64,000 bases of DNA from a virus (lineage: Duplodnaviria > Heunggongvirae > Uroviricota > Caudoviricetes), in IMG/VR virus record IMGVR_UViG_2868597578_000002; one strand, given 5' to 3'. Below, one piece after another: positions 2,591 to 37,896 of the stretch (the stretch's first letter is position 1; each line of letters opens with the position of its first letter). A model generated the notes under the pieces. That model was not told the DNA's origin and did no database searches. It saw only the letters and a program-made list of their open reading frames with translations. Both the position numbers and the translations under genes were made by a program.

Positions 2591-2624
2591 AACGTATAAG
2601 AAATTTACAGAAAGGAGGTACGAT

Positions 2625-9484: not shown

Positions 9485-9538
9485 ACCAGACTGTTTTTTG
9501 CATACTGTAAGAAAACGATATGCAAAGGAGCAGAAAAA

Positions 9539-18906: not shown

Positions 18907-20775
18907 ATGGCAGAAAATTATTTAATTGGGATGGCAGAGGAAATCAAATCATATATTCCCGGCACATCAAATATTGAAGAGGGGGACAGCAAGATTACGA
19001 TTAATGCAGAATTAAAGACAGGCATTAAAGGTATAAGCGTTGCGATTGAGTGCGCCCCAAATACAGTAAAAATCAAAGGTACGCAGGAATATAAGTATCC
19101 GATTTCCGAAGAATCCGTAGAAGAGTTCCAGCAGGAGATGATGGAAAAATATTCCGGATGCAATGTGTATGTAAGCGGCCAGGTATTTGCATTTTCAAAG
19201 TTTTTTTCATACCAGACAGTAGAAGAAGCAGTAAAAACAACAGAAGAAATCATCGATGCGATGCAGGACGCAGTGGTGACATTTGAGAACGACTGCGTAA
19301 ACTTTCTTGAAAAAGATGTTGAGGCCAAAGAGGAAGACTATAACCCGGAAGAAAACGTAAATCTTGTACACGTGGATAATGCATACCATGCGGTATCAAC
19401 TACGATGCAGGATACAGAGGACTATGAGGAAGAACATCGCAAATTTGCGGAAAAAATTTTCTGTGATTTAGCAGCTGAAATTGGTGGGACATTAAATGGA
19501 AATGAAGTTATCCTCGCCGACAAAAAAGAAAAAATTACAACAGACTGTATTTTTTTACCTCTGGATGCGGAGATTCTGGTTTCCGTATCTACTCCGGCAG
19601 ATAATGATGCCGGCACGATATATGTTTCCTACATCAATGCAAATTATCCTGAATTGATGGCTGCTTATGACGCAGACAATGAAGTATTCAAAGTAAGAAC
19701 GTATTCAAGCCCAGACAAATACGCACCGGATGAAACAAAAGAGCGTCTGGATTTATGTAGAACGGCTCTAGTTGCATGCATGAAGGAATATGAAAGAACG
19801 CTAAAAAAGAAAGATTCCGCGGACTTTGCGTCAGACGTACAGCAGATTTTGTCAGAACAGACAGCAATGGTATCTGAGCGAGAGAAGGCTGTCGCTGAGC
19901 GTGAAAATGAAATGGAACAGAAAGAAAAAGAGATGCAGAAAAAAGAGGCAGAACTACAAAAACAGGTTGCTGTATTGGAAGAAGAAAGGGCTGCACTTCA
20001 GGAGAAAATCAAATCAGAAGAGGCGAAAGTAAAAGAGCATGAAGAGGAGATGCAGAATAAAATCAAAGAATATGAGGAAAGGGATACAAAAAATATACTG
20101 AATCTGCAGCAGCTCGCAAAGCAGCTGGCTGCATTGCAGGATAGACAGAATGCCCTGGGAAAAACTGATAACGAAGCGGAAGAAGAAGTGTTCAGAATGA
20201 AGCAGAAAGTACAGCAGCTGGTAGGACAGAAGATTGCCTTGGAGAAAAAATTAACAGAAAAAATTGTCACAAAAGAATCAAAAATCAAAGAACTCTCTGA
20301 TTCCATTGGAAAGAAGGACCGTGAAATCAAAAAGATTGAAAGCAATATTGAAGACATGGTCAAAAGCCAGGTAGCAGATGAAGTTAAAAAAGTAGAAGAA
20401 CGCGCGGAAAGTATCCAGAAGCAGCTGGACGAAATCGGGCATATCCTGACGCCGGAGGACCTGATTTCTTATTATGAGCAGTATTCCGATGCTGAAATCA
20501 AAAAATTCCATGCCCCAAATGCAGAATTTGTTGTATACAATGACGGGGCTCTTGAAGTTAGAATCCGTATCGGAGAGACAAACTACGTTGAAGTATCAAG
20601 AAGCGCAGCGCTAAAAGACCAGATTCTGAGGAAACTTAACACAAAGTACAATGATGTCAAATTTTACAGTACAAAAGATGACAGGATTGCAGCAAGGTCA
20701 TATTTTAAGAAAAATGCCGCTGCTGAAGATGTCGACGACATTGTAGCATCATTGTCTGAAAATTTCAAAAAATAA
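18907..20775 (+). CDS. Hypothetical protein with a central long coiled coil (622 aa)
   Basis: The E/K/Q-rich heptad region (residues ~310-480) is flanked by globular N- and C-terminal domains. RBS aaaggagaaagaaataATG. Confidence 0.5.
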   Translation: MAENYLIGMAEEIKSYIPGTSNIEEGDSKITINAELKTGIKGISVAIECAPNTVKIKGTQEYKYPISEESVEEFQQEMMEKYSGCNVYVSGQVFAFSKFFSYQTVEEAVKTTEEIIDAMQDAVVTFENDCVNFLEKDVEAKEEDYNPEENVNLVHVDNAYHAVSTTMQDTEDYEEEHRKFAEKIFCDLAAEIGGTLNGNEVILADKKEKITTDCIFLPLDAEILVSVSTPADNDAGTIYVSYINANYPELMAAYDADNEVFKVRTYSSPDKYAPDETKERLDLCRTALVACMKEYERTLKKKDSADFASDVQQILSEQTAMVSEREKAVAERENEMEQKEKEMQKKEAELQKQVAVLEEERAALQEKIKSEEAKVKEHEEEMQNKIKEYEERDTKNILNLQQLAKQLAALQDRQNALGKTDNEAEEEVFRMKQKVQQLVGQKIALEKKLTEKIVTKESKIKELSDSIGKKDREIKKIESNIEDMVKSQVADEVKKVEERAESIQKQLDEIGHILTPEDLISYYEQYSDAEIKKFHAPNAEFVVYNDGALEVRIRIGETNYVEVSRSAALKDQILRKLNTKYNDVKFYSTKDDRIAARSYFKKNAAAEDVDDIVASLSENFKK

Positions 20776-20837
20776 TAGTACAGCCCATCGGTAATTTACT
20801 CATTACTGATGGGCACGCATAAAGGAGGAGTAGAAAA

Positions 20838-21734
20838 ATGGACAATACAGTGATTATTTTAATCGGAGCCGGTGTTTCTTGCGTCGTGATTGGTTTCGCT
20901 CTGTTTGTTAAATTGGCAAAAATGGGCTCACAGGAAGAGAGTGAAGCATCAGGAAACAAGAAACTGCTTGCAGACGATTATGCAGAAAATTTCCAGGAAT
21001 GTTTTGAAAACACTGGAAACATTGAGGACACGCTTGAACAGCTGGCTGATATTTATACTGGAAATCAGTATATGTACAATCTGATTATCAATGCCCTTAA
21101 CTTCCTTAAAGAAGACCAGGGTGATTATGAGACTGCATTGGAGGGTATCAATGTTGACAGTGATACAAGTATCATGAAGATGCATAATAACGCGATAAAA
21201 AAGGCGTTAAACATTGGAAATAGAAATAACGCTCATGAAGATGTTAAAGAGAAACCGGAACGAGAAAAAGCGAGAGAGAGTCACAATAAATCAACAAAAA
21301 GCGAAGGGGACTCGGCCGATGATATCGTCTGTGAGCCAGGCCCTGCGGTTTCAGCTTTTCATGAAGGCTTAAATTCACGCCCTGAGTTCGATAACGAATC
21401 AAGTTTTGCTGACAAATTGCCGACGAATGAAGAGGATGAGTATGAAGAAGACGAGGAAGAAGATGAGGAAGAAGACGAAGAGTATAACAGCACACAGGAA
21501 CTTTTAGATAACGTTAATACTGATAAGAAACAGGAGGCACCGAGTCTAAGAACTGGCCACAGGAGGGAAGCGCGGATTATTAATGGAGAACAGGAAATCC
21601 CCGGCCGACAAAAAGTCGTCCGCGGGTCAAGCGCTCCGGTTTTAACTTCGCACATTATCAAAAAAGAAAGAAATCAGGAAATCGAAAGTGAATCTTTTGA
21701 AGATGACGACTTAGATGATTTCAAAATTGGCTAA
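20838..21734 (+). CDS. Membrane-anchored acidic hypothetical protein
   Basis: N-terminal TM. D/E-rich segment (EEDEYEEDEEEDEEEDEEY). Contains an in-frame family-2 repeat copy at 21601-21660. Confidence 0.45.
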   Translation: MDNTVIILIGAGVSCVVIGFALFVKLAKMGSQEESEASGNKKLLADDYAENFQECFENTGNIEDTLEQLADIYTGNQYMYNLIINALNFLKEDQGDYETALEGINVDSDTSIMKMHNNAIKKALNIGNRNNAHEDVKEKPEREKARESHNKSTKSEGDSADDIVCEPGPAVSAFHEGLNSRPEFDNESSFADKLPTNEEDEYEEDEEEDEEEDEEYNSTQELLDNVNTDKKQEAPSLRTGHRREARIINGEQEIPGRQKVVRGSSAPVLTSHIIKKERNQEIESESFEDDDLDDFKIG

Positions 21735-21741
21735 GGAGAGG

Positions 21742-22986
21742 ATGGAGATGGACAACAAAATAAAAGCAATCATCGCCGTTGCCGTTGTTGCAGTTGGGAT
21801 GATTGGATACACACAAATATCAAAAGAAATGAACAAAGACCCTGAGATAACCGGACTGCAGGCTGAATTCGTTGGAAAGGTAGGACCGGGAGGGTCGTTA
21901 TCTAAAAACATGTTTAAAGTGACTGGAACCACTGAGGCGGGTAAGGTTGTGCAGATAAATGACTTTTCTTCAAAAACAACTACTGCTGCAGAAAACGGAG
22001 CATCTTGTGAAGTGAATATTGAGGCTCAAGGACAGTCGGCAACAGTCATTGTTGACATCACAAGAGAGCCGGTACTTGAAGAAAATATCGGATATCCAAA
22101 TGAGAAAAGCGCAAAAGTGACATGCTATTCAAATGGAGATTTGGAATTCACAGGAAAGGGGGACATTACAAACTTCACAACGTTTCCGTGGTCATCAAGT
22201 ACATATTCCCATGTGTATATTGACGATTCACTAAAAATCGAGAATATGGACAACTGGTTTGAGGGGAATGAAAATCTGGTATACTGCGACAATCTGCCAA
22301 AAACGTTAAAGACAATGAAGAGTACATTCGCAGGATGTACGGCAATAGAGAAGACTCCTGATTATTTTCAGTGCTCGAATTTAAAAATTATGGATTATGC
22401 ATTCTCTGGCTGCTCTGCATTAAAAGAAGCAGACATCATCCCGGTCAATGTGTCATCAATGAAATACACATATGCCGATTGCATTTTACTCCAAAGCCCA
22501 ATCAGTCTTGATAAAACAAGTAATCTGACGAACGTCTCTGGACTATATTCTGGGTGCACAAACCTGAGGGAGGCAACGACAATACCTGATAGTGTTATCT
22601 ACATGAACGAAACATATAAAGACTGTATCAATATTAAAGAAGCGGTAAAATTCCCGAAAAGTATAGAAGAAATCAGCGCAGCATATGCAGGATGTACCGG
22701 ATTGCTGACGGGAGCAACGATTCCAGAATCCGTAATAAATTTTACCGATTGTTACAATGGCTGTGAGTCCTTAAATGGCAAGTTGGAAATCAATTCAGAC
22801 TCGGATTCATTTGAAGGTGTACTGATGGGGGCAACAACAAACGGCGACAAATTAAGTATATCAGGAAACTGCGGTAATCTTCTTGCAATACAAAAAAATG
22901 CTTCAAACAGTAATATCGTGATGGCTGACCCTGAAGCAGCGTCAAAACAGAACGAAAGATTAAACAGAGAGAAGGAGAGTCAATAA
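21742..22986 (+). CDS. BspA-type leucine-rich-repeat surface protein
   Basis: N-terminal TM. Repeated ~23-aa units ...F.GC..L.E..IP.SV..M...Y..C... characteristic of BspA-like LRR_5 repeats. Start set at ATG 21742 after RBS aaggagagg. Confidence 0.55.
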   Translation: MEMDNKIKAIIAVAVVAVGMIGYTQISKEMNKDPEITGLQAEFVGKVGPGGSLSKNMFKVTGTTEAGKVVQINDFSSKTTTAAENGASCEVNIEAQGQSATVIVDITREPVLEENIGYPNEKSAKVTCYSNGDLEFTGKGDITNFTTFPWSSSTYSHVYIDDSLKIENMDNWFEGNENLVYCDNLPKTLKTMKSTFAGCTAIEKTPDYFQCSNLKIMDYAFSGCSALKEADIIPVNVSSMKYTYADCILLQSPISLDKTSNLTNVSGLYSGCTNLREATTIPDSVIYMNETYKDCINIKEAVKFPKSIEEISAAYAGCTGLLTGATIPESVINFTDCYNGCESLNGKLEINSDSDSFEGVLMGATTNGDKLSISGNCGNLLAIQKNASNSNIVMADPEAASKQNERLNREKESQ

Positions 22987-22988
22987 AA

Positions 22989-24065
22989 ATGGTAAAAAAA
23001 ATAGTTGTGTTTTTATGTTTTTTTGCTGGAGCCACATGCTTTATCTCTGCCGGTTTATACATAAACAGGCAGAATGCTGGACTTGAGCCGCAAAAGACAG
23101 AGGAAACAGTTTCAAAGGTGAAAAGTCCAGAACTGTTATCAGAGATTGACATGACATCATATGTTTCGCTTCCAGAATCATTTTCAGACATTGACATTAC
23201 AGAAGACTTGGACAATATCGAGGTCACAGATGATAATGTGCAAGATGTTATGTATGAACAGCTCGATAAAACTGCAGACCGGTTAGGTTCAGTGCAATCA
23301 GACCGTAGCGATAATATCACCCTTATTGTGGATTATACAGTAACGCAAAAAGGCAAAGTAAAAGAAGTTAAAAGTAATTTTAAAATGGCATATAGCGACA
23401 ACTCGAAGATATACAGTGACGATGTCTATACTGCATTAAATAACGCTAAAAAAGGAGACACTGTAAGAGTAACGGATACAACTTTTAATGGTGTCGAAGA
23501 TGCATCGGTAGACATAACGATATCTGATATTTTGAATATGCCATATCCAGTTACCGACGATTACATTCAGAACAACACAGAATACGACAGTGTGCATGAT
23601 ATGTGCTCCGCATTAAAAAACGATGCAAGCGGAGAGGCTAAGGAAATTGCAAGAGAACATACGATAAATTCACTGATTGATACGATGATGGAACAGACTA
23701 CTTTCATTCAGCTTCCGGAAAGCCTTATCCAAAGAGAGTTGGAAGTCCTCCAGAAAGATGACCCAAACGCAACATATGAACAGGCAAAGCATAGTCTTTA
23801 TAAAATTTTCTTTATCGCATCGGTTATAAAGAATGATGGCGTTGCGACAAAAACGGACCTGGAAAAAAGGTATGAAAAGCTAGACAAATCGGAAAAAGAA
23901 GGACTTTCGAAATATGAAATTGAAAGAAAAAAGTACCTTTTATTTGAGGAGGATGTTGTCACCAGCATTTATAAAAAAGTTCAAATTAACAGTCAGGAAA
24001 ATTCAACAAGCAGCTCTGATGCTGCTGAAACTGATAACACCGAGGACGATAATTCAATCGAATAA
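22989..24065 (+). CDS. Hypothetical membrane-anchored/secreted protein (358 aa)
   Basis: N-terminal hydrophobic segment. RBS gagaaggagagtcaataaaaATG. Confidence 0.5.
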   Translation: MVKKIVVFLCFFAGATCFISAGLYINRQNAGLEPQKTEETVSKVKSPELLSEIDMTSYVSLPESFSDIDITEDLDNIEVTDDNVQDVMYEQLDKTADRLGSVQSDRSDNITLIVDYTVTQKGKVKEVKSNFKMAYSDNSKIYSDDVYTALNNAKKGDTVRVTDTTFNGVEDASVDITISDILNMPYPVTDDYIQNNTEYDSVHDMCSALKNDASGEAKEIAREHTINSLIDTMMEQTTFIQLPESLIQRELEVLQKDDPNATYEQAKHSLYKIFFIASVIKNDGVATKTDLEKRYEKLDKSEKEGLSKYEIERKKYLLFEEDVVTSIYKKVQINSQENSTSSSDAAETDNTEDDNSIE

Positions 24066-24079
24066 TTCTAAGCAACACG

Positions 24080-24115
24080 AAGAGCAGAGATTTATATTCC
24101 TGCTCTTTTTTTTGC
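24080..24115 (+). terminator. Rho-independent terminator (gagcag-loop-ctgctc plus T8)
   Basis: agagcagagatttatattcctgctcttttttttg. Confidence 0.55.
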
Positions 24116-24192
24116 AAAAAAAACGTAATCCTTCATATTGTTTTCGGCATATTAACATAGAACACGAAGACCTGAAAAGGAGGCCGAAGAAT

Positions 24193-24489
24193 ATGCGAAA
24201 AACAATGTATTCAGCAATGAAAAATCTAGCAGAATATATTGCCGGGAACGAAAGTTATGACTTTGAAACTATCTGGAAAGAATGGAGTTCCAAATATAAA
24301 CCATTAGAAGAAACTACTAAAGAATTAAAAAAGATGGGAGAAAGTTTATGTCAGATAGATAAGAGTGACATCAAATCGGTGCCGGAGAGGAGCTATCGTG
24401 AAACTATAAAAAAGATGTTAAAGCCAGAAATCAACAAGGAGGAGTTTTTTGATGGACACGTCAGTGACAAAGATGAATGCTGCCGATAA
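24193..24489 (+). CDS. Small hypothetical protein (98 aa) overlapping the start of the sigma-factor gene
   Basis: RBS gaaaaggaggccgaagaatATG at 24193. The ORF-track ORF 23914..24489 is an upstream extension. Overlaps the downstream sigma gene by ~38 nt, suggesting co-transcription and coupling. Confidence 0.4.
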   Translation: MRKTMYSAMKNLAEYIAGNESYDFETIWKEWSSKYKPLEETTKELKKMGESLCQIDKSDIKSVPERSYRETIKKMLKPEINKEEFFDGHVSDKDECCR

Positions 24490-25468
24490 TGCTCAACTAT
24501 TAGAAGAAAAGAAGGTAGTCTACAGTTCAAATGGAAAATACGACCCACAAGAGATTAATAAACTGGTCAAAGTATACCATATGGCGCTTGAAGCAGGCGA
24601 CAACGCAACGGTGCAGGACGCATTTACGCAGATATACTATTTTATCAAAAATTACGTTTATAAAACACTTTGGGATAACTATCGCACACTTATGCAGAAC
24701 AGATATCACCAGGAAGACATTGTTCAAGATGTGTGGATTAAGATTTTTTCGGAATTAAAAAATTACGACCCTGACAAAGGTGCTATCACTACGTTCATAG
24801 CGCCATGGATTCGTCATGTGGTAAGCGATTATGCAAGCAAAAATTTCAGGAAAACCTCTGTGTATTATGCGAATGCCATGAAAAAAATCAATGGCGCACA
24901 GAATTACTGTAAACAATATGGATTAAATGCAGATGACATTGAGACAATCATGAGCCTGACAGGGCTGTCAGAAGCGACCGTAAAGAATACTCTTGATTTA
25001 ATGTCAAAAAAAGACAGCGTCTCATACGAAGCATTAATTGATGCGGGCGCAGACTATACAGCATCAATTAAAGGACCGGAAGAATCTGTTATTGAATCAG
25101 AATCAGAGGAAAACTTAAAAACAATCCTTAAGGATGTATTGACGGATGAAGAGCTTAATCTCTTAGAACTGTTGTTAAATCCTGAGAATTCAAGTAAAAA
25201 GCACTCCAGCTATCGTGAGATTGCAGAACAGATTCCAGGCAGTAATATTCCAAAAGTAAAACGTAAGATATCACGCATTACCACAAAGCTAAAAAATAAT
25301 AAACAGTTTGCACAATTGTACCCTTATATTATCGCACAGGAAAAAGCATTGGAGGATAATTACATACCAGTCATGGGTGATGATGGGAATGAAGATGACG
25401 ACATGTATGAGGAGTTCGATGACATGGACATGTCGGAAGGATGGAAAAGAACGAAAAAAAATAAGTAG
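24452..25468 (+). CDS. Sigma-70 family RNA polymerase sigma factor (element-encoded)
   Basis: Region 2-like DIVQDVWIKIF...FIAPWIRHVVSDYASKN (compare FxxYAxxWIRQAI). C-terminal region 4 HTH ...SYREIAEQIPGSNIPKVKRKISRITTKLK. Acidic C-terminal tail. Confidence 0.7.
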   Translation: MDTSVTKMNAADNAQLLEEKKVVYSSNGKYDPQEINKLVKVYHMALEAGDNATVQDAFTQIYYFIKNYVYKTLWDNYRTLMQNRYHQEDIVQDVWIKIFSELKNYDPDKGAITTFIAPWIRHVVSDYASKNFRKTSVYYANAMKKINGAQNYCKQYGLNADDIETIMSLTGLSEATVKNTLDLMSKKDSVSYEALIDAGADYTASIKGPEESVIESESEENLKTILKDVLTDEELNLLELLLNPENSSKKHSSYREIAEQIPGSNIPKVKRKISRITTKLKNNKQFAQLYPYIIAQEKALEDNYIPVMGDDGNEDDDMYEEFDDMDMSEGWKRTKKNK

Positions 25469-25479: not shown

Positions 25480-25812
25480 GGCTCATGATACCGCGAGCTA
25501 TGCTCAGCTATGCTCGCTTGTCAGCCTCTGCGAGGCTTGGTAACGAAGGCGCTAAGCCTGAGTTATCATTTTTAATCTGGTACCGAATCCAGCAAGGCCG
25601 GTGAGGCATCATATTCATTCTGGTACTGAGTGCGAAACACGAAGTATCATTTTTAATCTGGTGCCGAGCCAATACGGCGAGCGGCGAGGTATCAATTTAT
25701 GCTGGTAACGACTCCGGCAAAGCCGGGGAGTTATCAATGAAATCTGGTAACGAGTCCTGCGAGGCAGGCGAGTTATCAAAGTTGGACGAGGGCTTTCCTC
25801 CCGTCGATGGTT
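25480..25812. repeat. Array of five or more tandem family-1 hairpin repeat units plus a terminal family-3 hairpin
   Basis: Units of ~42 nt: tctggta(a/c)cga-N-tcc + variable short hairpin (ccggcaaagccgg, cctgcgaggcagg, ...) + gagttatca + 5-8 nt spacer. Ends with ggacgagggctttcctcccgtcgatgg followed by a T/A-run. Confidence 0.6.
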
Positions 25813-25845: not shown

Positions 25846-25864
25846 CAAATTATTCTGCATATTG
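25846..25864 (+). promoter_or_regulatory. Conserved GCATATT motif copy with no downstream ORF (drives candidate ncRNA)
   Basis: caaattattctgcatattg. The next RBS-preceded ORF is 1.5 kb away. Confidence 0.45.
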
Positions 25865-25869
25865 ATTCT

Positions 25870-26745
25870 GATGATACAGATGACAGCCAGGAATTTTGCA
25901 AAAAGTCCTGAAGGACCTTACTGATATTGTACAAAGAAGCGAAAAAAAGAAATAAAAAGAGACAGGAGATTCGTGGAAATATCACGCGGTCAAATTGAAT
26001 ATTGAGGTGTCACCTCTACCAAGAGGACGTTAATTATTATTTTTTGCATAAAGATAAAGAGAGGAAAAACAAAATCAGCAAAAATAATAAAAAAACGTGA
26101 TGAGAACGAGACATATGCTGCAGTAATGCAGAGCAAGGACCAATCTGGTTGCTAAAACAACGTTAAGTGTTGCCGAGCGGCAAAAGTCGAGCAGGGAGCG
26201 GAGAAAATAGTTTGGTCTTAGACTATCCGATGACCTAAGGGGGTGTAGTGCGTTGCAAGCCCTTTGCCTAATACGTAGTTGTATGCGTAAGATGCGAAAG
26301 CACGGGTGAAAGCCTGGTTAAGAGTAGGACGCGGGGGAGTTTGTGGACAACGGAATCCGCGGGAATAAAGACAAACTGTATATACAGTTGATGTAATAAA
26401 ACCGCAACAGGAGGAAGTGAAGCACAGATGCACAGACAGCTTGCGGGCTGCCGGGACCTGTAGGATGATGGAAACATCATGGCGTGTGGGATGTGCCATA
26501 GATTGTACAGAAGAAATGTATAATTTAGACTACGCCAAAATCAGCACGACTGATTTGAACTGCAGGGTTGCGCTTTCCGATAAGCTCTTCGATAAGTTTT
26601 TCGATGAGTGCGACTGCTATCTAAGACCGTCATGATGTGAAGCGACCGATTCCGACGGGCTACATAAAATCTGAGCAGAATGGCATAGCGTTATCCTTCT
26701 TCCGCGCAGACGCATACCATTATAGGGAGAGTCTGCGCTTTTTCG
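25870..26745 (+). ncRNA. Candidate large structured non-coding RNA (or non-coding control region)
   Basis: GCATATT motif at 25857-25863 with no ORF downstream. 0.9 kb lacks any RBS-preceded ORF. A GC-rich core (26160-26600) has many hairpins, some GNRA-capped (gatgatg-gaaa-catcat, cacgggtgaaagcctgg). Ends at a strong terminator gcgcagac-N19-gtctgcgcttttt (26702-26744). Confidence 0.3.
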
Positions 26746-27010
26746 CAAGGAGAAACTATGTCAATCTGCTCAGCTCCCTCCTCCTCTGGGCTGCATGGCG
26801 GCCTTTGGCCGCCTTTCAAAACGTAAGGTTACGAAATATAAATTTACTTTTTTCAAAGTGTAACGTTGAGATGGCAACAGGAAATGCAGCCCATTAACGA
26901 AGGGTGTGATTTATCCGGTAAAGCGACATTACGCATCGTAATAACACTCAACATGCCAAAACTTTTAGAATATATGAATCACGCCCGCACTAACGAAAGA
27001 AAAAGCTGAG

Positions 27011-27156
27011 ACAAGACATGCACACTGCAAAATCTTCATATATCTGGAACGCGAAGATACTGGATATCACGATATATATGAATTTTAAGAAAACTTATAG
27101 GATATCCAGTATCGGAGCGGATAGAACCTTCCGCGATTTTGCAGTGCATGTCTTGT
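27011..27156. other. Long nested inverted repeat (cruciform-capable), followed by an AT-rich direct-repeat tract
   Basis: agacaagacatgcacactgcaaaatc (27011-27036) pairs with gattttgcagtgcatgtcttgtct (27133-27156). Nested gatactggatatc / gatatccagtatc. Followed by ttttttatatacgttttttatatac (27193-27220). Confidence 0.5.
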
Positions 27157-27371
27157 CTCGAGGTCAGAGTAATCGGCTTGCCGATTAGGATGACCTCCAT
27201 GTTTTTTTATATACGTTTTTTATATACAAATACACTGTTCTTCCAAATATTTATCATATTGTACATAGAGAACCGGGACACAAACAACGTGTCTGCAACA
27301 ACTGGCCATTGTATCAGCACTTCAAATTCCTGTTTCGGTTATCGGCAACAAAACACACAGGAGGATAAAAT

Positions 27372-28436
27372 ATGTTTTTTGTTATAGTTATTCTAGTAAT
27401 AATCATTGTATTCCTGGCGAACCAGATACGTATCGTCCCTCAGCAGGCATGCTACATTATTGAGCGCCTTGGAAAATACAGCACAACGTGGGAGGCTGGC
27501 CTGCATGTGAAAGTTCCAGTCATTGATAAGATTGTAAAGAAAATCTCCATCAAGGAACAGGTGTACGATTTTCCGCCACAGGATGTTATCACAAAAGATA
27601 ACGTCACAATTAGTATCGATTCTGTCGTGTATGCAAGTGTTTTCGACCCAAAATTGTATACATATGGGATTGAGAAACCTATCACTGGTTTACAGAATTT
27701 GACAGCCACGACTCTCAGAAGTATTATTGGCGCCATGGAATTAGACCAGACACTGTCTTCGAGGGCAGATATCAACCGCCAGATGCAGGATGTGCTTGAT
27801 GAAGCAACTGATGAATGGGGTATTAAGGTATCACGCGTGGAGGTCAAAAATATCAAGCCACCGAAAGAGATTGAAGAGGTCATGACAAAGCAGATGAGGG
27901 CTGAGAGAGAAAGACGCCAGACCGTATTGGAAGCACAGGCACATAAAGAATCTGTAGTATCCAGGGCAGAAGGTGATAAGCAGGCGAAACTGCTTGACGC
28001 AGAAGCTGAGAGAGACGCAAAAATTGCTCTTGCGAAAGGTCAGGCGGAGGCTATCAGGCTTGTATATGAAGCAGAAGCAGAAGGACTTAGAAGGCTTGCG
28101 GAGTCAGGCGTAAATGAAAATATTTTACGTTTAAAATCTATTGAAGCGATGAAGGATGTGGCCGATGGCCGGGCTACAAAAATCTTTATCCCAAATAATC
28201 TGGCAGAAGGTGTCGGGCCTGCAGCGATTGCCGGCGAGGCTTTTTGGGGAGCAACAAAGGAACCTAAAAAGGAATTCTCAAATGCCGAAGCGGAAAAAAT
28301 CCGAAAAGAAAGATGCGTCAAAAAGACGGTGTCTGAGGATGCCTGCATGAAAGCACCAAGGACGAAAGTAAGTATGCAGTCGGCGATGACTAATGCGGGA
28401 ATGGTCCATGATATGCATAAGGACGAAACTGACTGA
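27372..28436 (+). CDS. SPFH/band-7 domain protein (stomatin/prohibitin/HflK-like)
   Basis: N-terminal TM, then the canonical SPFH domain (IVPQQACYIIERLGKY...GLHVKVPVIDKI...ISIDSVVYASV...). A/E-rich coiled-coil C-terminal part. Confidence 0.8.
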   Translation: MFFVIVILVIIIVFLANQIRIVPQQACYIIERLGKYSTTWEAGLHVKVPVIDKIVKKISIKEQVYDFPPQDVITKDNVTISIDSVVYASVFDPKLYTYGIEKPITGLQNLTATTLRSIIGAMELDQTLSSRADINRQMQDVLDEATDEWGIKVSRVEVKNIKPPKEIEEVMTKQMRAERERRQTVLEAQAHKESVVSRAEGDKQAKLLDAEAERDAKIALAKGQAEAIRLVYEAEAEGLRRLAESGVNENILRLKSIEAMKDVADGRATKIFIPNNLAEGVGPAAIAGEAFWGATKEPKKEFSNAEAEKIRKERCVKKTVSEDACMKAPRTKVSMQSAMTNAGMVHDMHKDETD

Positions 28437-28505: not shown

Positions 28506-28522
28506 TTTTATTTTGCATATTG
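28505..28522 (+). promoter_or_regulatory. Conserved GCATATT motif copy upstream of the SSB-like gene
   Basis: ttttattttgcatattggag. Confidence 0.5.
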
Positions 28523-28594: not shown

Positions 28595-29449
28595 ATGGCA
28601 AGACATAATTATGTGAGTGTTCTTGCGCTGGTACGAAAGGAACCAAAATTCAAAGACACAGTTGACGGAAGAGCCGGAATCGTTGGTCTTACAACGATTA
28701 TGAGTGGAAGAGAGTACGACAAGGCTACAAGCGGTTATCAATTAAACAGTGTTTCTTTTTGTGCCAGAACACAGGAAAAAGAAATCCTTGATGTGATGGA
28801 TACATTGCAGTTATGGGATGTTGTAAAAATGACAGGATTTTTAGCAACAAGAGAAAAAGATAAAAAAGCAGAGTGTCCGTTTTGCAATGCGGTCAACCGA
28901 AGAGTTGATGCATGCGTAAGAAACGGAAAGCCAAAATCCGGTGGTAATGAGATTTTTGTATATCCAATTACGCTAAGAGTAGAGGAGAAGTTTGAAACCG
29001 AACAGGCAGCGTACGAGTATCTGCATGCAAACGAAGAGGATGCAAACCGTGTGTTTGTGCTTGGTAATTTAACAAACTCTCCTATCCACGGGGAGCTGCA
29101 GGGAGGACGAAAGCCGTATACAAGATTCCAGCTGGCTATCAACCGTAAGTATTGCCCAAAGGGCGGAAATGAAATGTACGAAAGGACAGACTATCCGTGG
29201 GTGTATTCTTATGGCGACAAATCTATCGAAGATTACCAGAATCTTGAAAAAGGTGCCCTCGTATTTGTAGATGGCGCCCTGCAGGCAAGAAAATTTAAAG
29301 AACAGTACACCTGTGGAGTATGCGGCGAAGAGTATGACGTAAGGGGAAGGACACTGGAAGTCCTTTCATACGATACAGAATATCTTAGACTTCCGAACCT
29401 GGCTCCGGATGACGAAGAAGACGATGATGAGAACGAAGATTCAGAGTAA
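28595..29449 (+). CDS. Tandem OB-fold SSB-like protein with zinc-ribbon insertions (putative ssDNA-binding protein)
   Basis: NYVSVLALVRKEPKFKDTVDGRAGIVGLTT and NRVFVLGNLTNSPIHGELQGGRKPYTRFQLAINR both follow the SSB OB-fold N-terminal pattern (N-x-V-x-L-x-G-x-L-x-x-x-P-...-F-x-LA). CxxC...C pairs. Acidic DDEEDDDENEDSE tail like SSB C-tails. Confidence 0.45.
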   Translation: MARHNYVSVLALVRKEPKFKDTVDGRAGIVGLTTIMSGREYDKATSGYQLNSVSFCARTQEKEILDVMDTLQLWDVVKMTGFLATREKDKKAECPFCNAVNRRVDACVRNGKPKSGGNEIFVYPITLRVEEKFETEQAAYEYLHANEEDANRVFVLGNLTNSPIHGELQGGRKPYTRFQLAINRKYCPKGGNEMYERTDYPWVYSYGDKSIEDYQNLEKGALVFVDGALQARKFKEQYTCGVCGEEYDVRGRTLEVLSYDTEYLRLPNLAPDDEEDDDENEDSE

Positions 29450-29564
29450 CTATATGAGGCAGCGGCATAAACTCCGCTGCTTTTTTGATGAAACAAAAAA
29501 CATTCATATTAAATGTGAAACAAAAACAAATAAGAAAGGGGAAATTAATTTGAGAACATTTAAT

Positions 29565-30647
29565 ATGGAAGGCCTGAAAGATTTATGGGAAGACTATTCT
29601 TCTGCAATAAAATCGACAAAGATTGATTTTAAAAAAGCAAAAATCTATCAGGCAAAGGAAATAAAAACAGGAGGGCTGGAAATGCTGGTCACATCTGTAA
29701 GTACTGGAAAACAGGAGACGATTTTTGAGCAATTGCCTGATAAAATGTGCTATATCATCAATAAATCCGAGTGCTTTTATGAGATTGACGGAATACGTTA
29801 TATCCCAAGCCGCGAAGTAAACAGCAGAACACTGAACGATTACAGCCGCAAGAATATCGTTGATGACTGTATGAACAAAGGAAAAACAAAAGAACCTCCT
29901 ATAACGGTAAATCATTTCTCATCACCGGACACATTGAAAACACTGGCCGGAAGATTAAGGCGGACAGATGAGCTTATCGGTATTCATTATAAACTGGTCC
30001 GTGCCAGAAAAAAAGTATATGCACGGCTTGTTGGGTTAAAATCTATGAATGGTGAGAATCAGATTTCTGCGGTAGAGATTGCTGGATGTCTATATAATAA
30101 ATGCGGAAGGAGTATGCTGTTTGAGTCTGCATACCTAGAGCAGATAAAAAGACAGCCAGCATTAAGCTTTACTTTTAGATGCAAACCTGCCCGGTTGCGT
30201 TCCGACGGAATCCCGGTATGTATTTTGTTCCAGGATACATTATCTGGGAGAAAGAGCATGCGCGTCGATTTTGCAGTAAAGATTGATAACAGGCTGTATA
30301 TCCTTGACAGCATGGAAGTTAACCATCGTACTAAGATGTCCGGAGACGAGATTGCCGATAACATCATTAAGCGATTTGAAGTATGTTATACGGCAGATTT
30401 AAATCTAAATATTACAGCAAATGATATCATTAAAAACGTGCTGCAAAAAGGACTTGTTCCAAAAAAAGCAGAAGAGAGGTTTGTAACTTACATGTCATCT
30501 ATTAACACTGATACACCAATCGCTATGGCTTCAGATGTAATAAAGACAGGGATATTTAATATAAAAAACAAAAAGCATACAAGCAGCGGATATGACGGAG
30601 GAAAGCGTCGCTATGAGTTGGAGCTAGGGCGCGCTCTGATAAGATAA
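29565..30647 (+). CDS. Hypothetical protein (~360 aa)
   Basis: ORF 29409..30647. Start placed at ATG 29565 (MEGLKDLWEDY) after RBS aaagggg. No recognisable motifs. Confidence 0.4.
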   Translation: MEGLKDLWEDYSSAIKSTKIDFKKAKIYQAKEIKTGGLEMLVTSVSTGKQETIFEQLPDKMCYIINKSECFYEIDGIRYIPSREVNSRTLNDYSRKNIVDDCMNKGKTKEPPITVNHFSSPDTLKTLAGRLRRTDELIGIHYKLVRARKKVYARLVGLKSMNGENQISAVEIAGCLYNKCGRSMLFESAYLEQIKRQPALSFTFRCKPARLRSDGIPVCILFQDTLSGRKSMRVDFAVKIDNRLYILDSMEVNHRTKMSGDEIADNIIKRFEVCYTADLNLNITANDIIKNVLQKGLVPKKAEERFVTYMSSINTDTPIAMASDVIKTGIFNIKNKKHTSSGYDGGKRRYELELGRALIR

Positions 30648-30704
30648 TGTTTTCAAAAAATATAAGACCGGGGAGATATCTCCGGTTTCTTTTTTGGCAT
30701 ACTA

Positions 30705-30827: not shown

Positions 30828-31697
30828 ATGGCATTTATGACAGAAACGGCAAAATATGAAACAAAAAATGTGGAAAATATGATTAGAGGCTCTCGTAATA
30901 TTACTTTTTTGAATATATTTAGCGTAGGTAAAGAAATCCTGCGTATCGAAGCAGAAACCTATTATGTGGAAGATGTTCTTGAGAATGGCGATGTTATTAA
31001 TATAATCGGAAAATTCATTGCAAACTCTGACCCTTGTGCCAAATTGAACATCGTTTGTAAAGATGAAAGAAAGAGAAGACCAGAAACATTAAGAAAAGTT
31101 GGAGTAACACTTGAAGAATTAAGAAATGGTATGAAAAAGAAGGAAATGGCAAGAGCTGTGTCTGATTATTTTATAAAATATGACGGGATTATAGTTTCTT
31201 GCAAACCATATTCTATTATTTCGATGCTGAATAATGATATCATTGAATCCAAGTATAAATCTATTGATAATTCATATTTTGATATAAAGAGAATGGCTAA
31301 AAAGTGCGGTGAAAATTTTACAGATAAGAACAGCCTGGAAAATCTAAAAGAAACATTTATAGACTGCACCGGAAGTTACCGCAGGATGAAAAAGATGGAA
31401 CAAAATAAAAAGGCCTGTGTTGTAAACTATGCGTATTTTTGGCAGAGTTCGTATCGAAACTATGCAGAATGGATTTTTTGCGATACTTCGATTGGGAAGA
31501 TTTATTATGACACGTTGACTGAGAAATGGGGGATTACCAAAAAAGAGGAAAAAGAAAATGGGCTGCGTATCGAAAGTGTTGATACTTTTGATGTAAAAAA
31601 ACAATTGATGGATAAATATAGAGTGAATAGCATGATGGAGCTTAAAAATCTGCTCAAAGAAAAAGCAGAAGAAAGAGAAAAAAGAATGGCAGTCTGA
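30828..31697 (+). CDS. Hypothetical protein (289 aa)
   Basis: RBS aggtatggaggaataaagtATG. No recognisable motifs. Confidence 0.5.
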   Translation: MAFMTETAKYETKNVENMIRGSRNITFLNIFSVGKEILRIEAETYYVEDVLENGDVINIIGKFIANSDPCAKLNIVCKDERKRRPETLRKVGVTLEELRNGMKKKEMARAVSDYFIKYDGIIVSCKPYSIISMLNNDIIESKYKSIDNSYFDIKRMAKKCGENFTDKNSLENLKETFIDCTGSYRRMKKMEQNKKACVVNYAYFWQSSYRNYAEWIFCDTSIGKIYYDTLTEKWGITKKEEKENGLRIESVDTFDVKKQLMDKYRVNSMMELKNLLKEKAEEREKRMAV

Positions 31698-31862
31698 TAT
31701 CTGGAAATAAGTCCGGCAAATCCGGGAAGTCAGTAACAAAGAACAGAAGTTTCAGGCTGGAGATGCTGCTCTGGTGTTTTTTAGCGACAATCAAATTTGG
31801 CATATTAAAGATGCTAAACAAAATATAGCTAAAATAGCTAAAAAAAGAAAGGAAAAAATATT

Positions 31863-33014
31863 ATGAAATTTAAAACAGACTATGAGACATTTAGAGGAGC
31901 AATCGCAACAATTGGAAAAGCTGTAAAGAAAAACGGTATCAACGAAATGGCCGTTGTTAAGATGGAGGTAAAAGGAAATATCCTGGAATTATCTACAAAT
32001 GGTAATATTGGATGCATCGTCCAGGTTGAATTGACAGATGGAGAAGATGGAGAGTTTGTCGTGTCATTTTCAGAACTTAACATCTTTAGTCTTAGAAAGT
32101 GCACCGGAAAAATCTCTGCGTCATCAAGTGATGATGGCAACGCTATGACCATGATGTACAGAGACGGAAATGCAAAGACTGTACTCACAAGAGTTGATGT
32201 TGTATTTAATGACGTAGCCAAGCCTGAAAAAGATACACCGAAGGTTGCGCTTCCGTTTGCAACATTAAAGAAAATGGTTGCAGAAACAATTTTTGCTGCA
32301 AGCCGTGAGGAGACAAATGCAGGGTATGGCGTACATCTGAATATCCGTGAAGATGAGGACGGACTGCTGGCTCTTACGATTACATGTCTTGATGGCTTAC
32401 GCGTGGCTCAGCGAACTGCATATGCTGTCAAGAATGGAGACTACACCGGAACTGTGATTGTTCCGCCTGAGCAGTTTAAGACAATGATTGACATTGTAGA
32501 TGCATCAGATGATGATGCTAATATCGATATTACTATCGATAGCGGAAAATTATATATGGATTACAGTAAAAAGCATGTGTGCATTCCGGTCCTGGATAAA
32601 AAATATCCGGCCGTACAGCGAATGATTGACGGAGAAATCGGAAAAGATGCTTGCAAATTCTCTATCACAATTGACAAGAGAGATTTTATTGAATCCATCT
32701 CCTGTGTTCAGTATGTACTTCAGGAGACCGGGGCATCTGGAGTGAACTCATCAGCGATGCTGAAATTCAAAGAAAAAGAACTCGAGATTGGAGGAATCGG
32801 TCTTTCTCAGTATGGAGAAAAGATTGAGGCTGAGACAGTCGGAGAAGTTCCAGAGCCTGCTTATTTTAACCCGGATTTTCTGAAAGAAGCAGCAAGCATT
32901 TATCCTAAGGACAAAATTACAATCGGAGTGATTGGACCGAAAGCGCCAATCTGGATGTGCTGTGGGGACAGTAATGAATATGTTTACTGTGTGCTTCCAA
33001 GAAAACGCGAATAA
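31863..33014 (+). CDS. dnaN: DNA polymerase III beta sliding clamp (DnaN)-like protein
   Basis: 383 aa, the size of a three-domain clamp. The C-terminus YFNPDFLKEAASIYPKDKITIGVIGPKAPIWMCCGDSNEYVYCVLPRKR parallels the DnaN C-terminus (xFNxxYLxDxL...L...gxxxPxxx...dxxxxYxYxxMPxR). Confidence 0.6.
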   Translation: MKFKTDYETFRGAIATIGKAVKKNGINEMAVVKMEVKGNILELSTNGNIGCIVQVELTDGEDGEFVVSFSELNIFSLRKCTGKISASSSDDGNAMTMMYRDGNAKTVLTRVDVVFNDVAKPEKDTPKVALPFATLKKMVAETIFAASREETNAGYGVHLNIREDEDGLLALTITCLDGLRVAQRTAYAVKNGDYTGTVIVPPEQFKTMIDIVDASDDDANIDITIDSGKLYMDYSKKHVCIPVLDKKYPAVQRMIDGEIGKDACKFSITIDKRDFIESISCVQYVLQETGASGVNSSAMLKFKEKELEIGGIGLSQYGEKIEAETVGEVPEPAYFNPDFLKEAASIYPKDKITIGVIGPKAPIWMCCGDSNEYVYCVLPRKRE

Positions 33015-33072: not shown

Positions 33073-33726
33073 TTATTCTTGCGCGTTTTCTAATTGTCCA
33101 TATTTTGACATGAACATATAGTTATGAAAAAGAAAATCATTTTTCACTGCAGACGGCATGCTGTCGTGCATGTATTCCAGCGGTGTTGCATAAAAACTGA
33201 TATATAATTGATATAATTTATTTTGTTTTAAATATTTAATACACTCTTTTGAAGAAAAAAACCTGTATAGTTCATCTTCTGATTTGAACATACATGTTTT
33301 GTTGATTACGTATTGAAGACATATTTTGGCGCGAAGCATACCTAAGTATCCGTACATATAGTCCTTTGGGTATCGCCCCTCTCCTGCCATTACCTTATCA
33401 TATACACGAAGTGTATACCTTTTTACGTCGTAATCTACATAGCGAGGATAAAGAAGATAAAGGATATATTCTGTATCATCCTTGGTAACATCAGATGGAA
33501 ACGCAATGTATTTTACCATCTGGTCAAGTTTCATAAACGAAATGTAATTTTTATTAAATAGCTTTATTGCATTGTGGATATCCCATCCTAATAAATTCTC
33601 TATCGCATATCGGATTACAGAAAGTGCAATCCTCTCGTTTCCCTTTTTATCAAACAAAAAATAGCTTGTCGGTATGCGCTGCCGGTTTCCAAGCAGGACA
33701 TCTTCATAATCGTTTAATATTCCCAT
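33073..33726 (-). CDS. Hypothetical protein on the minus strand (217 aa)
   Basis: Y/K-rich with no recognisable motif. Confidence 0.45.
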   Translation of the reverse strand: MGILNDYEDVLLGNRQRIPTSYFLFDKKGNERIALSVIRYAIENLLGWDIHNAIKLFNKNYISFMKLDQMVKYIAFPSDVTKDDTEYILYLLYPRYVDYDVKRYTLRVYDKVMAGEGRYPKDYMYGYLGMLRAKICLQYVINKTCMFKSEDELYRFFSSKECIKYLKQNKLYQLYISFYATPLEYMHDSMPSAVKNDFLFHNYMFMSKYGQLENAQE

Positions 33727-33814
33727 TGTATTTTAACTCCTTTTTCCGATATTTTTTATTTCTTTCTTTTAATATGCGAAATGAATCCCTTTTTAACCTA
33801 GCCGTGCCGATATT

Positions 33815-33833
33815 TTTTTTATTTTGCATATTG
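33815..33833 (+). promoter_or_regulatory. Conserved GCATATT motif copy upstream of 33861 CDS
   Basis: ttttttattttgcatattgg, 28 nt upstream of the ATG. Near-identical to the copy at 28505-28522 (ttttattttgcatattgg). Confidence 0.5.
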
Positions 33834-37556: not shown

Positions 37557-37644
37557 AAAAAAAAGCATTTTTACTCCGTTCGAAAAATGAAAAATTCGGC
37601 ATATTGAAGGCAAACCGCAAAAATAAAAAAAAGGAGAGAAAGAT

Positions 37645-37896
37645 ATGCAACATATTGAAATAACAGAGCATGACTTTGATGCCTTAATGGATAAACTGGA
37701 AAAAATTGAAATGGAAAACGATGGATATATTCCGTCAGAGGAAGACGTTTTTGATTATATTGAAAAAAATCCAGAAAGATATTACCTGTATTTGCTTTGG
37801 TATAGCGAACATAAGCCGAAGCCTCAGACAGAGGAAGAAAAAAAGATTTTAAAAAAAATTACAAAGATAACTAATCAGACAATCAAGATTTTATAA
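37645..37896 (+). CDS. Small hypothetical protein (83 aa)
   Basis: RBS aaaaggagagaaagatATG. Confidence 0.4.
   Translation: MQHIEITEHDFDALMDKLEKIEMENDGYIPSEEDVFDYIEKNPERYYLYLLWYSEHKPKPQTEEEKKILKKITKITNQTIKIL

Follow-up and report, generated by a model that had tools for sequence, protein, structure and literature searches.

Several bacteriophages encode sigma factors that redirect the host core RNA polymerase (RNAP) to promoters other than those of the host, for instance gp28 and gp33/gp34 of SPO1 and gp55 of T4, which works together with gp33. The late promoters of T4 consist of an extended -10 element only, and both gp34 and gp55 act in concert with a small partner protein. A plasmid-borne example is SigN (ZpdN) from pBS32 of Bacillus subtilis, whose regulon is restricted to the plasmid and which activates its own synthesis via a sigma-dependent promoter (PMC6751061). 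The SigN promoters are bipartite and consist of TTTACGTTT and a GATAAA-like element (PMC6751061, Table 2). Moreover, SigN is controlled by LexA and drives a subset of genes that has been linked to cell death (PMC6751061). Another sigma factor gene is carried by the Inocles of oral Streptococcus, plasmid-like elements of about 250-400 kb and about 32% G+C content (GC) with VirB4/VirD4, a RecD-like helicase and a gene annotated as 'RpoS' (PMC12340149). In the Inocle study, this sigma factor is taken for a stress-response gene, and a promoter motif is not described (PMC12340149). Here, we describe a stretch of 64,000 nt (IMG/VR virus record IMGVR_UViG_2868597578_000002; hereafter the window), which encodes a divergent sigma factor at 24452-25468 and contains many copies of the promoter-like motif TTYnKCATATTR. 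We propose with moderate confidence that this sigma factor is autoregulated and drives an element-wide regulon via these promoters.

A preliminary description of the window had drawn attention to the heptamer GCATATT. All 19 plus-strand positions given there and the minus-strand copy exist; the coordinates are correct as well, except that 37598 should be 37599 and that the minus-strand copy occupies 187-193. Of these positions, 9500, 30697 and 40580 hold GCATACT and 8043 and 58197 hold TCATATT, variants for which the description had allowed, and further copies were found at 10999 (GCATACT), at 27254 (TCATATT) and on the minus strand at 33777. The bare heptamer is enriched only about twofold over chance in the window (30 copies vs 15.6 +/- 4.2 expected). 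By aligning the copies, a longer conserved core, W-T-T-Y-N-K-C-A-T-A-Y-T-R, was obtained, and the extended motif used for the statistics is the 12-mer TTYNKCATAYTR. It matches 25 times in the window vs 1.43 times expected, the maximum among 100 shuffles being five. The intergenic DNA (7.2 kb) contains 20 matches on the plus strand, which is the gene strand, vs 0.046 expected from intergenic-only shuffles, and only three were detected on both strands of the 56.8 kb of coding DNA. Of the 30 intergenic gaps that are 50 nt or longer, 20 hold a copy. The heptamer itself had been thought to be absent from the interior of open reading frames (ORFs), which is incorrect because about four plus-strand and about nine minus-strand GCATATT copies are located there. 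It had also been placed 20-60 nt upstream of start codons. The distance is 35-63 nt for most copies, but four are 80-131 nt and three more than 150 nt away, and the copy at 25857 has no ORF downstream.

The architecture of the putative promoters was derived from an alignment of 51 sites, which come from the window itself and from five related elements. The base located 13 nt after K is a purine in 50 of the 51 sites and is preceded by T in 32 of them. This T-rich -1 followed by a purine is the signature of a transcription start and places CATATT at -12 to -7. In the resulting register, G or T is found at -13, TTY at -17 to -15 and R at -6. The information content is 0.65-1.5 bits at -18 to -15 and 1-2.4 bits at -13 to -6, with C at -12 and K at -13 being invariant, and no conserved -35 hexamer was detected (<0.25 bits at -36 to -29). 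The conservation of the bases just 5' of the -10 element together with the lack of a conserved -35 hexamer is characteristic of an extended -10 promoter. The T-rich tract noted earlier does exist, but it is better described as W-T-T-Y at -18 to -15. Furthermore, an A-run ends at -37 +/- 1 in 18 of the 51 sites, and at least five A residues lie within -43 to -37 in 22 sites vs 5-6 in control windows. Its position presumably fits the proximal UP subsite rather than a target of sigma4.

The surroundings of the copies are in line with transcription initiation. The predicted +1 is followed by a Shine-Dalgarno (SD) sequence and a start codon within 22-118 nt in 16 of the 21 plus-strand sites, and the start codons are preceded by strong SD sequences of the AGGAGG type. 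Terminator-like hairpins are about twofold enriched (32 vs 14.6 in shuffles), and many of them are located directly upstream of a motif. The window can thus be read as a succession of units consisting of terminator, promoter and operon. Copies on the minus strand are located in front of genes on that strand, both in the window (33777) and in the related loci L001, L006, L009 and L025. Taken together, the position of the motif, its agreement in strand with the genes, the purine at the predicted +1, the placement after terminators and before SD sequences and the phylogenetic footprints described below strongly support its prediction as a promoter of the -10 type, as the preliminary description had supposed. 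Two other assignments were rejected. The motif could have been the -35 element of a sigma-E-like promoter (KMATATT). However, several copies are just 23-30 nt away from the SD sequence, the leaders of 22-26 nt at some copies are incompatible with a -35 element, and no CATACA-like -10 element is found 14 nt downstream. The tract GCAAAAAA was considered as a -35 element as well, but between the end of the A-run (-37 +/- 1) and the hexamer there are 23-24 nt, a distance that is too large for sigma4; we regard the tract as UP-like, and about 40% of the sites have it.

The sigma factor gene lies in an operon behind one of the motif copies:

24143-24154, plus strand: promoter motif TTCGGCATATTA in front of the small ORF-sigma operon, with the predicted +1 near 24160

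24193-24489, plus strand: small ORF of 98 aa with its own SD sequence, overlapping the start of the sigma gene by 38 nt; candidate sigma partner

24452-25468, plus strand: divergent sigma-70 family sigma factor of 338 aa with sigma2, sigma3, sigma4, a conserved C-terminal extension and an acidic tail

The assignment of 24452-25468 (ATG at 24452, SD sequence AAGGAGG, stop at 25468) to the sigma-70 family, already made from the letters alone, was borne out by the hidden Markov model (HMM) searches, and the overlap of 38 nt with the upstream ORF was found as described. The protein matches Pfam Sigma70_r2 (PF04542; 9e-11, 41.8 bits vs a cutoff of 24) and TIGR02937 (4.6e-14, 52.4 bits vs a cutoff of 42.9, residues 70-282) as well as the phage sigma family phrog_351 (2e-16). 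It does not pass any subfamily model, and its closest relative in the PDB by sequence is RpoH. An AlphaFold 2 (AF2) model, calculated with 35 homologues and having a mean predicted local distance difference test score (pLDDT) of 71, comprises sigma2 (30-132), a sigma3-like domain (140-185), a disordered linker, sigma4 (209-302) and the acidic tail. All PDB matches obtained with Foldseek are three-domain sigma factors of groups 1-3 in holoenzyme structures, SigB, sigma32, sigmaS, sigmaA and sigma28 being the best ones. The presence of sigma2 is indicated by PF04542, TIGR02937 and a WIRH block that aligns with WIRQ of sigma70. The presence of sigma4 is indicated by the TIGR02937 match up to residue 282, the helical domain 209-302 and the full-length Foldseek alignments to holoenzyme sigma factors; a separate Pfam r4 match was not obtained for sigma4. 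The extracytoplasmic function (ECF) sigma factors of group 4, which have about 170-220 aa and contain only sigma2 and sigma4, are ruled out by the length of 338 aa, the helical domain 140-185 and the three-domain structural matches; all ECF equivalog models also score far below their cutoffs. Membership in the sporulation-type SigE/K/F/G or SigH families was likewise rejected: SigH gave partial matches of 16-19 bits vs NCBIfam cutoffs of 208-414, and no SigE/K/F/G model is among the 25 best families. Judged from the HMM matches and the structural model, 24452-25468 encodes a genuine group-3-like sigma factor, which is predicted to bind core RNAP.

Homologues of the sigma factor form 48 clusters at 90% identity, all of which are metagenomic, and an exhaustive HMM search returned 18 representatives below 1e-30 and 1242 below 1e-3. 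No relatives of the sigma factor were found by tblastn in PLSDB (72,556 plasmids, E<=1e-3) and in a phage collection, or by a peptide-pattern scan of the GTDB representative genomes. The family thus appears to be an orphan that is known only from metagenomes and syntenic elements. Beyond sigma4, the protein has an extension (residues 285-338; 25304-25468), in which F286, Y290-P291-Y292, I293 and E297 are invariant or nearly so. Like the acidic disordered tail that follows, the extension has no counterpart in standard sigma factors. Just 3' of the sigma gene (25490-25790), there are imperfect direct repeats (..TATCATTTTTAATCTGGTACCGA.. and ..GAGTTATCAA..), which could be iterons or a region of the origin or oriT type.

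The -10 recognition helix of the sigma factor contains the sequence ...APWIRHVVSDY..., and whether it is aligned with RpoH or compared with E. coli sigma70 by hhalign, His122 falls opposite Q437 and Ser125 opposite T440. Residues Q437 and T440 of sigma70 lie opposite the -12 base pair, and promoters in which T-12 has been changed to C are classically suppressed by Q437H (PMC2613000). On this genetic evidence, C at -12, which is the base found in the motif, is the expected preference of a sigma factor that has His instead of Q437. His122 is invariant within the family and is also present in the relatives with 46% and 32% identity.

The small ORF in front of the sigma gene belongs to a family of 30 homologue clusters, and the seven syntenic copies share 29-57% identity. 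It is located directly upstream of the sigma gene or overlaps with it in L001, L005, L008, L009, L017 and L020, and wherever it is present it immediately precedes the sigma gene, even next to the sigma factor with 46% identity. It is absent in L006 and L007. Structure prediction gives a small helical product with a disordered tail. Searches of Pfam, NCBIfam and PHROG yielded no hit, a fold search gave no PDB match, and the sequence contains neither the HxxxCxxC (ZAS) motif nor a hydrophobic or membrane segment. The linkage shows that this is a conserved gene tied to the sigma gene; the overlap suggests translational coupling, and the product is a candidate partner of the sigma factor. Nothing in its family assignment, fold or sequence motifs marks it as the anti-sigma factor that had been considered, nor as a FlgM or an RsbW-like kinase.

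Comparison with related elements revealed that both the gene order and the promoters are conserved. In the relatives, a gene for an 1100-aa protein is followed by genes for an Ig-like protein, a 620-aa protein, a leucine-rich repeat (LRR) protein and a 330-aa protein, by the small ORF and by the genes for the sigma factor and a single-stranded DNA-binding (SSB) protein, with the genes for the type IV coupling protein and topoisomerase III farther away. The syntenic contigs have a GC content of 30.5-44.9% and carry the motif before orthologous genes, including a minus-strand copy before a minus-strand gene. Six orthologous regions upstream of the 620-aa gene have a mean column identity of 39%, and the invariant columns include an A-tract, CATATTA and T positions in the region of the terminator T-run. 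On a contig with 51% GC, whose sigma factor is 46% identical, TTYNCCATATTA precedes the small ORF-sigma pair as well as one other gene, the exchange of the -13 base for C being the sole change. In an element with a 32%-identical sigma factor, nCATATTA is found upstream of four genes. The motif therefore persists across elements of 30-51% GC, with sigma identities from 79% down to 32%.

Some relatives deviate from this arrangement. A contig of 208 kb from a Lachnospiraceae metagenome-assembled genome (MAG; JBKXDT010000005.1, L022) is 98% identical to window positions 10868-24335. It lacks 17713-21058 of the window, and the similarity breaks off inside the small ORF. From position 10143 of L022 onward, the sigma region is swapped for unrelated genes (HNH, RNase T and thymidylate synthase), and the motif is still present. 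In L006, which is devoid of the small ORF, the sigma gene is the last gene of the operon behind the motif upstream of the 620-aa gene. One distant relative has a canonical TTGACT-17-TATAAT promoter upstream of the small ORF-sigma pair, but a terminator-like hairpin follows. Another relative, L010, originates from a DDBJ run. L003 and L004 are polished long-read contigs of 379,969 and 382,248 nt with 31% GC, in which the sigma locus is located at different offsets and in different orientations. The differing orientation and phase suggest that both are circular replicons of about 380 kb.

The motif was also compared with housekeeping promoters and with control DNA. Canonical TTGACA-N16-18-TATAAT-like pairs are not enriched, neither at 18-38 kb (44 vs 55 in shuffled DNA) nor at 1-18 kb (44 vs 40), and the best sigma-A-like pairs in these scanned parts of the window fall inside genes. 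TGnTATAAT occurs once in the window vs 3-12 times per 42 kb in four control plasmids, which are represented by 42-kb segments of Firmicute conjugative plasmids with related type IV secretion systems from Streptococcus, Anaerococcus, Ruminococcus and Clostridium. Each of these segments contains 0-2 copies of the 12-mer, none of which is on the gene strand. When the controls were extended by a chromosome-like segment of 50 kb from a Clostridia chromid and by one unrelated locus, the motif gave four hits in 231 kb of other Firmicute plasmid and chromid DNA without this sigma factor vs 65 hits in 202 kb of sigma-carrying elements. It is thus about 20 times rarer in the control DNA, which is a proxy and not the chromosome of the host. 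The literature on the heptamer was uninformative. The TnpB gene described below did not provide a bridge to host chromosomes, since there was no exact match and the 93%-identical relatives all belong to the same element family, and a further genome scan, in which FtsH was used to find host-like chromosomal DNA, gave just one irrelevant locus. That the motif differs from the canonical housekeeping (sigma-A) promoter, as had been suspected, is nevertheless well supported by these sequence comparisons.

These observations can be combined into a model. Each transcription unit would be bounded by an intrinsic terminator and an unusual extended -10 promoter (-18 to -6), often with an A-tract at -43 to -37, and transcription would start at the purine located 7 nt past the last T. 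The element-encoded sigma factor would bind the core RNAP of the host and read these promoters. In this complex, sigma2 would recognise CATATT, with His122 in place of Q437 accommodating C at -12, and the start of sigma3 would probably contact the TTY extension. The sigma gene is located behind the motif copy at 24147, which implies self-activation if the sigma factor reads the motif; the expression of the sigma factor together with its small partner gene would create a positive feedback. The outcome would be a single sigma-dependent regulon comprising genes for conjugation, partition, replication accessory functions, surface proteins, FtsH and TnpB as well as a non-coding transcript. We infer the role of the sigma factor as the reader, its autoregulation and the role of His122 from co-occurrence, from the near-absence of the motif in other Firmicute plasmids, from the motif copy in front of the sigma gene and from the match between His and C-12, which indirectly support the dedicated sigma factor postulated earlier; the regulon can be called private, as it had been, only with respect to the proxy DNA. 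The assignment of the motif to the sigma factor of the element is the most economical explanation of the sequence data, and we regard it as fairly probable.

Several points weigh against this assignment. The sigma factor and the motif do not co-vary, as the core is the same at 32% sigma identity, and the comparative evidence therefore consists of co-occurrence only. L022 has no sigma gene at the syntenic site, yet the motif is present in the replacement DNA; the sigma gene may be located elsewhere on the 208-kb contig. The overall probability of the hhalign comparison that places His122 at Q437 is low (9.6%), even if there is no ambiguity in the WIR(Q/H) block. No DNA target is evident for the sigma4 domain, and the private status rests on proxy DNA and not on the true genome of the host. 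Moreover, a self-activated sigma factor leaves the start-up in a naive host unexplained, and there are only weak sigma-A-like candidates for this step. One is formed by TTGCAA at 24112 and a second TCATATT at 24133, which are separated by a 16-nt spacer (24112-24139) just upstream of the sigma operon promoter. The other one, TTTGCA-18-TATAAT at 8756-8785, is the sole good sigma-A-like promoter in intergenic DNA. The latter lies upstream of an ORF at 8819-9484 (221 aa, no Pfam hit), which may be expressed independently of the element sigma factor and could thus be an early or regulatory gene. In the distant relative mentioned above, the canonical TTGACT-17-TATAAT in front of the hairpin is a further start-up candidate.

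The start-up problem after transfer would be solved if the sigma-A holoenzyme of the host read the motif, with the A-tract serving as an UP element and the element sigma factor controlling other or few genes. This is an unlikely explanation, even though CATATT matches TATAAT at four of six positions and keeps the critical A-11 and T-7, and the A-tract (-43 to -37) is at the position of the proximal UP subsite in about 40% of the sites. Selection for sigma-A strength would favour T-12 and TG at -15/-14, whereas C-12 and G/T-13 are invariant over the 51 sites from DNA of 30-51% GC. Furthermore, there is no -35 element, TGnTATAAT and the canonical pairs are found in the control plasmids and are nearly absent here, and the motif is about 20 times rarer in the control plasmids. 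Reading by a sporulation sigma factor of the host (G, E or K) with a CATA-type -10 element, by which expression would be tied to the developmental state of the host, is very unlikely. In B. subtilis, the -10 pattern of the sigma-G type is CATnnTA, and CATA is common to the -10 elements of sigma-E and sigma-K. CATATTA does fit the sigma-G-type pattern, and a Lachnospiraceae host, as hinted at by binning, could be a spore former. However, none of the -35 elements GnATA, ATA or AC is conserved at -35 to -30, the conserved element sigma gene inside the regulon would be left without explanation, and the motif is kept in the relatives of about 380 kb and 31% GC, which resemble (by resemblance only) the Inocles of the non-sporulating genus Streptococcus.

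It is rather unlikely, but of the competing explanations perhaps the one to be taken most seriously, that another factor of the element reads the motif, such as a different sigma factor, a sigma-appropriating activator like MotA/AsiA of T4, a non-canonical RNAP encoded elsewhere on the element or a repressor whose operator overlaps the -10 element. The 64 kb that are visible may belong to an element of more than 200-380 kb, many large ORFs are without annotation, and L022 keeps the motif without a sigma gene at the syntenic site. On the other hand, the sigma factor is the sole recognisable transcription-initiation protein in the conserved core and its gene lies within the regulon in all relatives that were inspected; the -10 position and the geometry of the purine at +1 suit sigma2, and the exchange of Gln for His fits C-12. 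Finally, the motif might not be a promoter at all but part of a terminator, a signal for RNA processing or in the leader, or a small mobile repeat. Several copies come right after the T-run of a terminator, and the copies at 8043 and 13919 have a longer upstream segment in common. This explanation is extremely improbable because the orientation always agrees with the downstream gene, the spacing to the purine and then to the SD sequence and ATG fits initiation, and some copies are 23-30 nt away from the SD sequence, leaving no room for another promoter. A mobile repeat is also difficult to reconcile with flanks that carry nearly no information outside the 13-nt core.

Besides the copy in front of the sigma operon, the following motif copies were mapped:

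186-197, minus strand: promoter motif directed out of the window

367-378, plus strand: promoter motif upstream of a small ORF (419-598) and the following genes

2579-2590, plus strand: promoter motif upstream of the TnpB gene (2625-4085)

4697-4708, plus strand: promoter motif upstream of the gene for an FtsH homologue (4750-6573)

7217-7228, plus strand: promoter motif upstream of a Sir2-family gene (7257-7985)

8039-8050, plus strand: promoter motif (TCATATT variant), followed by a 156-nt leader and ORF 8212-8601

9496-9507, plus strand: promoter motif (GCATACT variant) upstream of the genes for a peptidoglycan-binding protein and a signal peptidase (9539-11512)

10995-11006, plus strand: motif copy within the 5' part of the signal peptidase ORF, kept in L022; an uncertain, possible internal promoter

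13915-13926, plus strand: promoter motif, followed by a 347-nt leader and the gene for a surface protein of 1142 aa (14279-17707)

18844-18855, plus strand: promoter motif upstream of the operon 18907-24065 (proteins of 622 aa and 298 aa, LRR protein, protein of 358 aa), with the footprint in six elements

25853-25864, plus strand: promoter motif with an ORF-free stretch of about 1.3 kb behind it (candidate non-coding RNA)

27250-27261, plus strand: promoter motif (TCATATT variant) upstream of a Band7/SPFH gene (27372-28436)

28511-28522, plus strand: promoter motif upstream of an SSB-domain gene (28595-29449) and 29409-30647

30693-30704, plus strand: promoter motif (GCATACT variant) right after a terminator, upstream of 30828-31697

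31796-31807, plus strand: promoter motif upstream of a beta-clamp-like gene (31863-33014)

33770-33781, minus strand: promoter motif about 45 nt upstream of 33073-33726, the only clear minus-strand gene

33822-33833, plus strand: promoter motif upstream of 33861-34961 and the gene for the type IV coupling protein (34951-37500)

37595-37606, plus strand: promoter motif upstream of 37645-37896 and the topoisomerase III gene (37911-40559)

40576-40587, plus strand: promoter motif (GCATACT variant) upstream of the gene for a RecD2-like helicase (40624-42819)

44423-44434, plus strand: promoter motif upstream of 44530-44946 and the gene for a lysozyme-domain protein of 2484 aa (44952-52406)

55063-55074, plus strand: promoter motif upstream of an actin-like (ALP_N) partition gene (55150-56310)

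58193-58204, plus strand: promoter motif (TCATATT variant) upstream of 58285-63972, a block containing the gene for a VirB4-like ATPase

Degenerate variants of the motif are located at 673-680 (GCATGTTA), 1921-1931 (ccTTCATATTA), 7176-7186 and 11640-11650 (TTTTGCATACA in both cases), in gaps without a consensus copy. These variants could represent weak promoters or promoters with another kind of regulation.

Nearly all long ORFs of the window, which has a GC content of about 40%, are on the plus strand, and the cumulative GC skew climbs steadily. Using Pfam, the following genes were identified that give a hint to the nature of the element:

34951-37500, plus strand: type IV coupling protein

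37911-40559, plus strand: topoisomerase III

40624-42819, plus strand: RecD2-like helicase

44952-52406, plus strand: protein of 2484 aa with a C-terminal lysozyme domain

55150-56310, plus strand: actin-like partition protein

60120-62567, plus strand: VirB4-like ATPase

Further Pfam-identified genes code for SSB-domain, beta-clamp-like, FtsH, Sir2, signal peptidase, sortase and surface proteins and for TnpB. The coupling protein shares about 34% identity with the CD1115-type VirD4 of Firmicute conjugative plasmids, and no near-identical DNA to the window was found in PLSDB or in the phage collection. Judged from its gene content, the window therefore belongs to a large and hitherto uncharacterised plasmid-like element of the conjugative type from a Firmicute. 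Its host is possibly a member of the Lachnospiraceae, according to the binning of the 98%-identical contig.

The stretch of about 1.3 kb without an ORF after the copy at 25857 ends in a hairpin and a T-run near 27160-27210. It shares the blocks AACAACGTTAAGTG..CCGAGCGGCAA.AGTCG, GGGGGT..GCGTT.CAAGCCCT and CTGGTTAA.AGTAGGACGCGGGGG with L006 (13421-15440), which is likewise non-coding after a motif copy, and partly with L011 (16290-16815). Neither Rfam scans (the whole window at gathering thresholds; 25.4-27.3 kb at E<=1) nor tRNA scans gave a hit. The region 25853-27210 is a candidate for a large structured RNA that would be expressed from a promoter of the element.

The TnpB protein of the window is of the IS605 OrfB/Cas12f-like type, and metagenomes contain hundreds of proteins with 92-96% identity. 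The sequence upstream of the gene, TTTTTCGCAAAAAA.CGTCCCGTTT...TTCGGCATATTA, is nearly identical in the window (2579-4085), in L025 (9957-11461) and in L031 (9957-11461), and the examined places with a near-identical TnpB gene all lie inside this element family. This suggests that the insertion sequence has adapted to the transcription system of the element. At L031 16443, a further promoter copy of the TnpB type precedes a short ORF that is cut by the end of the contig. The TnpB genes of the relatives are surrounded by genes for an intein-containing SecA, SecY, SecE and a RelA/SpoT protein, and 13-14 motif copies per 21.5 kb are found on both strands, each before a gene. Evidently, the region represents a different part of this element family. 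In L025-L034 (e.g. L025 2444-5884 and 13812-15377), SecA carries a LAGLIDADG/Hom_end intein, the RelA/SpoT-type protein is a small synthetase, and motif promoters are arranged divergently between genes. The SecA, SecY and SecE genes suggest an element-borne accessory secretion system.

A wider proposal, which we put forward tentatively, is that widespread uncultured giant Firmicute conjugative elements, possibly including the Inocles, run a near-orthogonal transcription based on one sigma factor with a small partner and on a -35-less code of 13 bp. The code might drive nearly every operon, including those for FtsH, the beta-clamp, SSB, SecA/SecY/SecE of the relatives, the large non-coding RNA and the TnpB insertion sequences, which is conceivable but short of probable. 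It is also possible, though we would not count on it, that the element is transcriptionally insulated from its host and can be switched as a unit. If the sigma factor does read these promoters, the expression of an entire class of large conjugative elements, so far uncultured, from Firmicutes of the gut and perhaps of the mouth would depend on a single element-encoded switch. Hundreds of genes could then be carried at a tolerable cost, and the elements could stay silent until the sigma factor is switched on. One sigma factor and a 13-bp promoter would provide a handle for predicting operons and for reading metatranscriptomes, and they could serve as an orthogonal sigma/promoter pair for synthetic biology in Firmicutes. 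The 'RpoS-like stress gene' of giant oral elements would turn out to be their master transcription factor, and the exchange of Gln for His together with C-12 would be a clean natural case of sigma/promoter co-specificity.

Like pBS32 with SigN, the plasmid-type element described here encodes a divergent sigma-70 protein with a putative element-centred regulon and has the sigma gene itself behind the motif. Unlike the bipartite SigN promoters, the promoters are of the extended -10 type and devoid of a -35 element. Moreover, they occupy about two thirds of the intergenic gaps, including those before conjugation, partition and replication genes, and the element is conjugative. The sigma factor does not appear to be a member of the SigN family, since the motif differs and tblastn gave no match among the 72,556 PLSDB plasmids, in which the presence of pBS32 was left unchecked. 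The small conserved ORF is reminiscent of the partners of gp34 and gp55, and the match to phrog_351 also recalls phage sigma factors. In contrast to those, the sigma factor resides on a conjugative plasmid-like replicon (T4CP, VirB4 and Alp, that is, the type IV coupling, VirB4-like and actin-like proteins) and not on a virus, and there is no sign of a temporal cascade. Unlike the minimal gp55, it also has the full set of sigma2, sigma3 and sigma4, and it gave no tblastn match to phage records. As in extended -10 promoters and in sigma70 Q437H, bases 5' of the -10 element are conserved instead of a -35 element and His is paired with C-12. However, the extension is TTY at -17 to -15 rather than TG at -15/-14, G/T-13 is conserved, and the sigma factor represents a natural family and not a laboratory mutant. 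L001-L004 are Inocle-like in size, GC and gene content, a likeness that is based on the published description and not on an Inocle sequence. The window, with 40% GC and 98% identity to a Lachnospiraceae-binned contig, differs from the Inocles, which have about 24-32% GC, the InoC marker and Streptococcus as the host. Sigma factors of mobile elements with element-restricted regulons, such as SigN of pBS32 and those of phages, are thus a known kind. What appears to be new here is an orphan sigma family with a -35-less extended -10 code, a coverage of nearly the whole element and a putative dedicated small partner gene.

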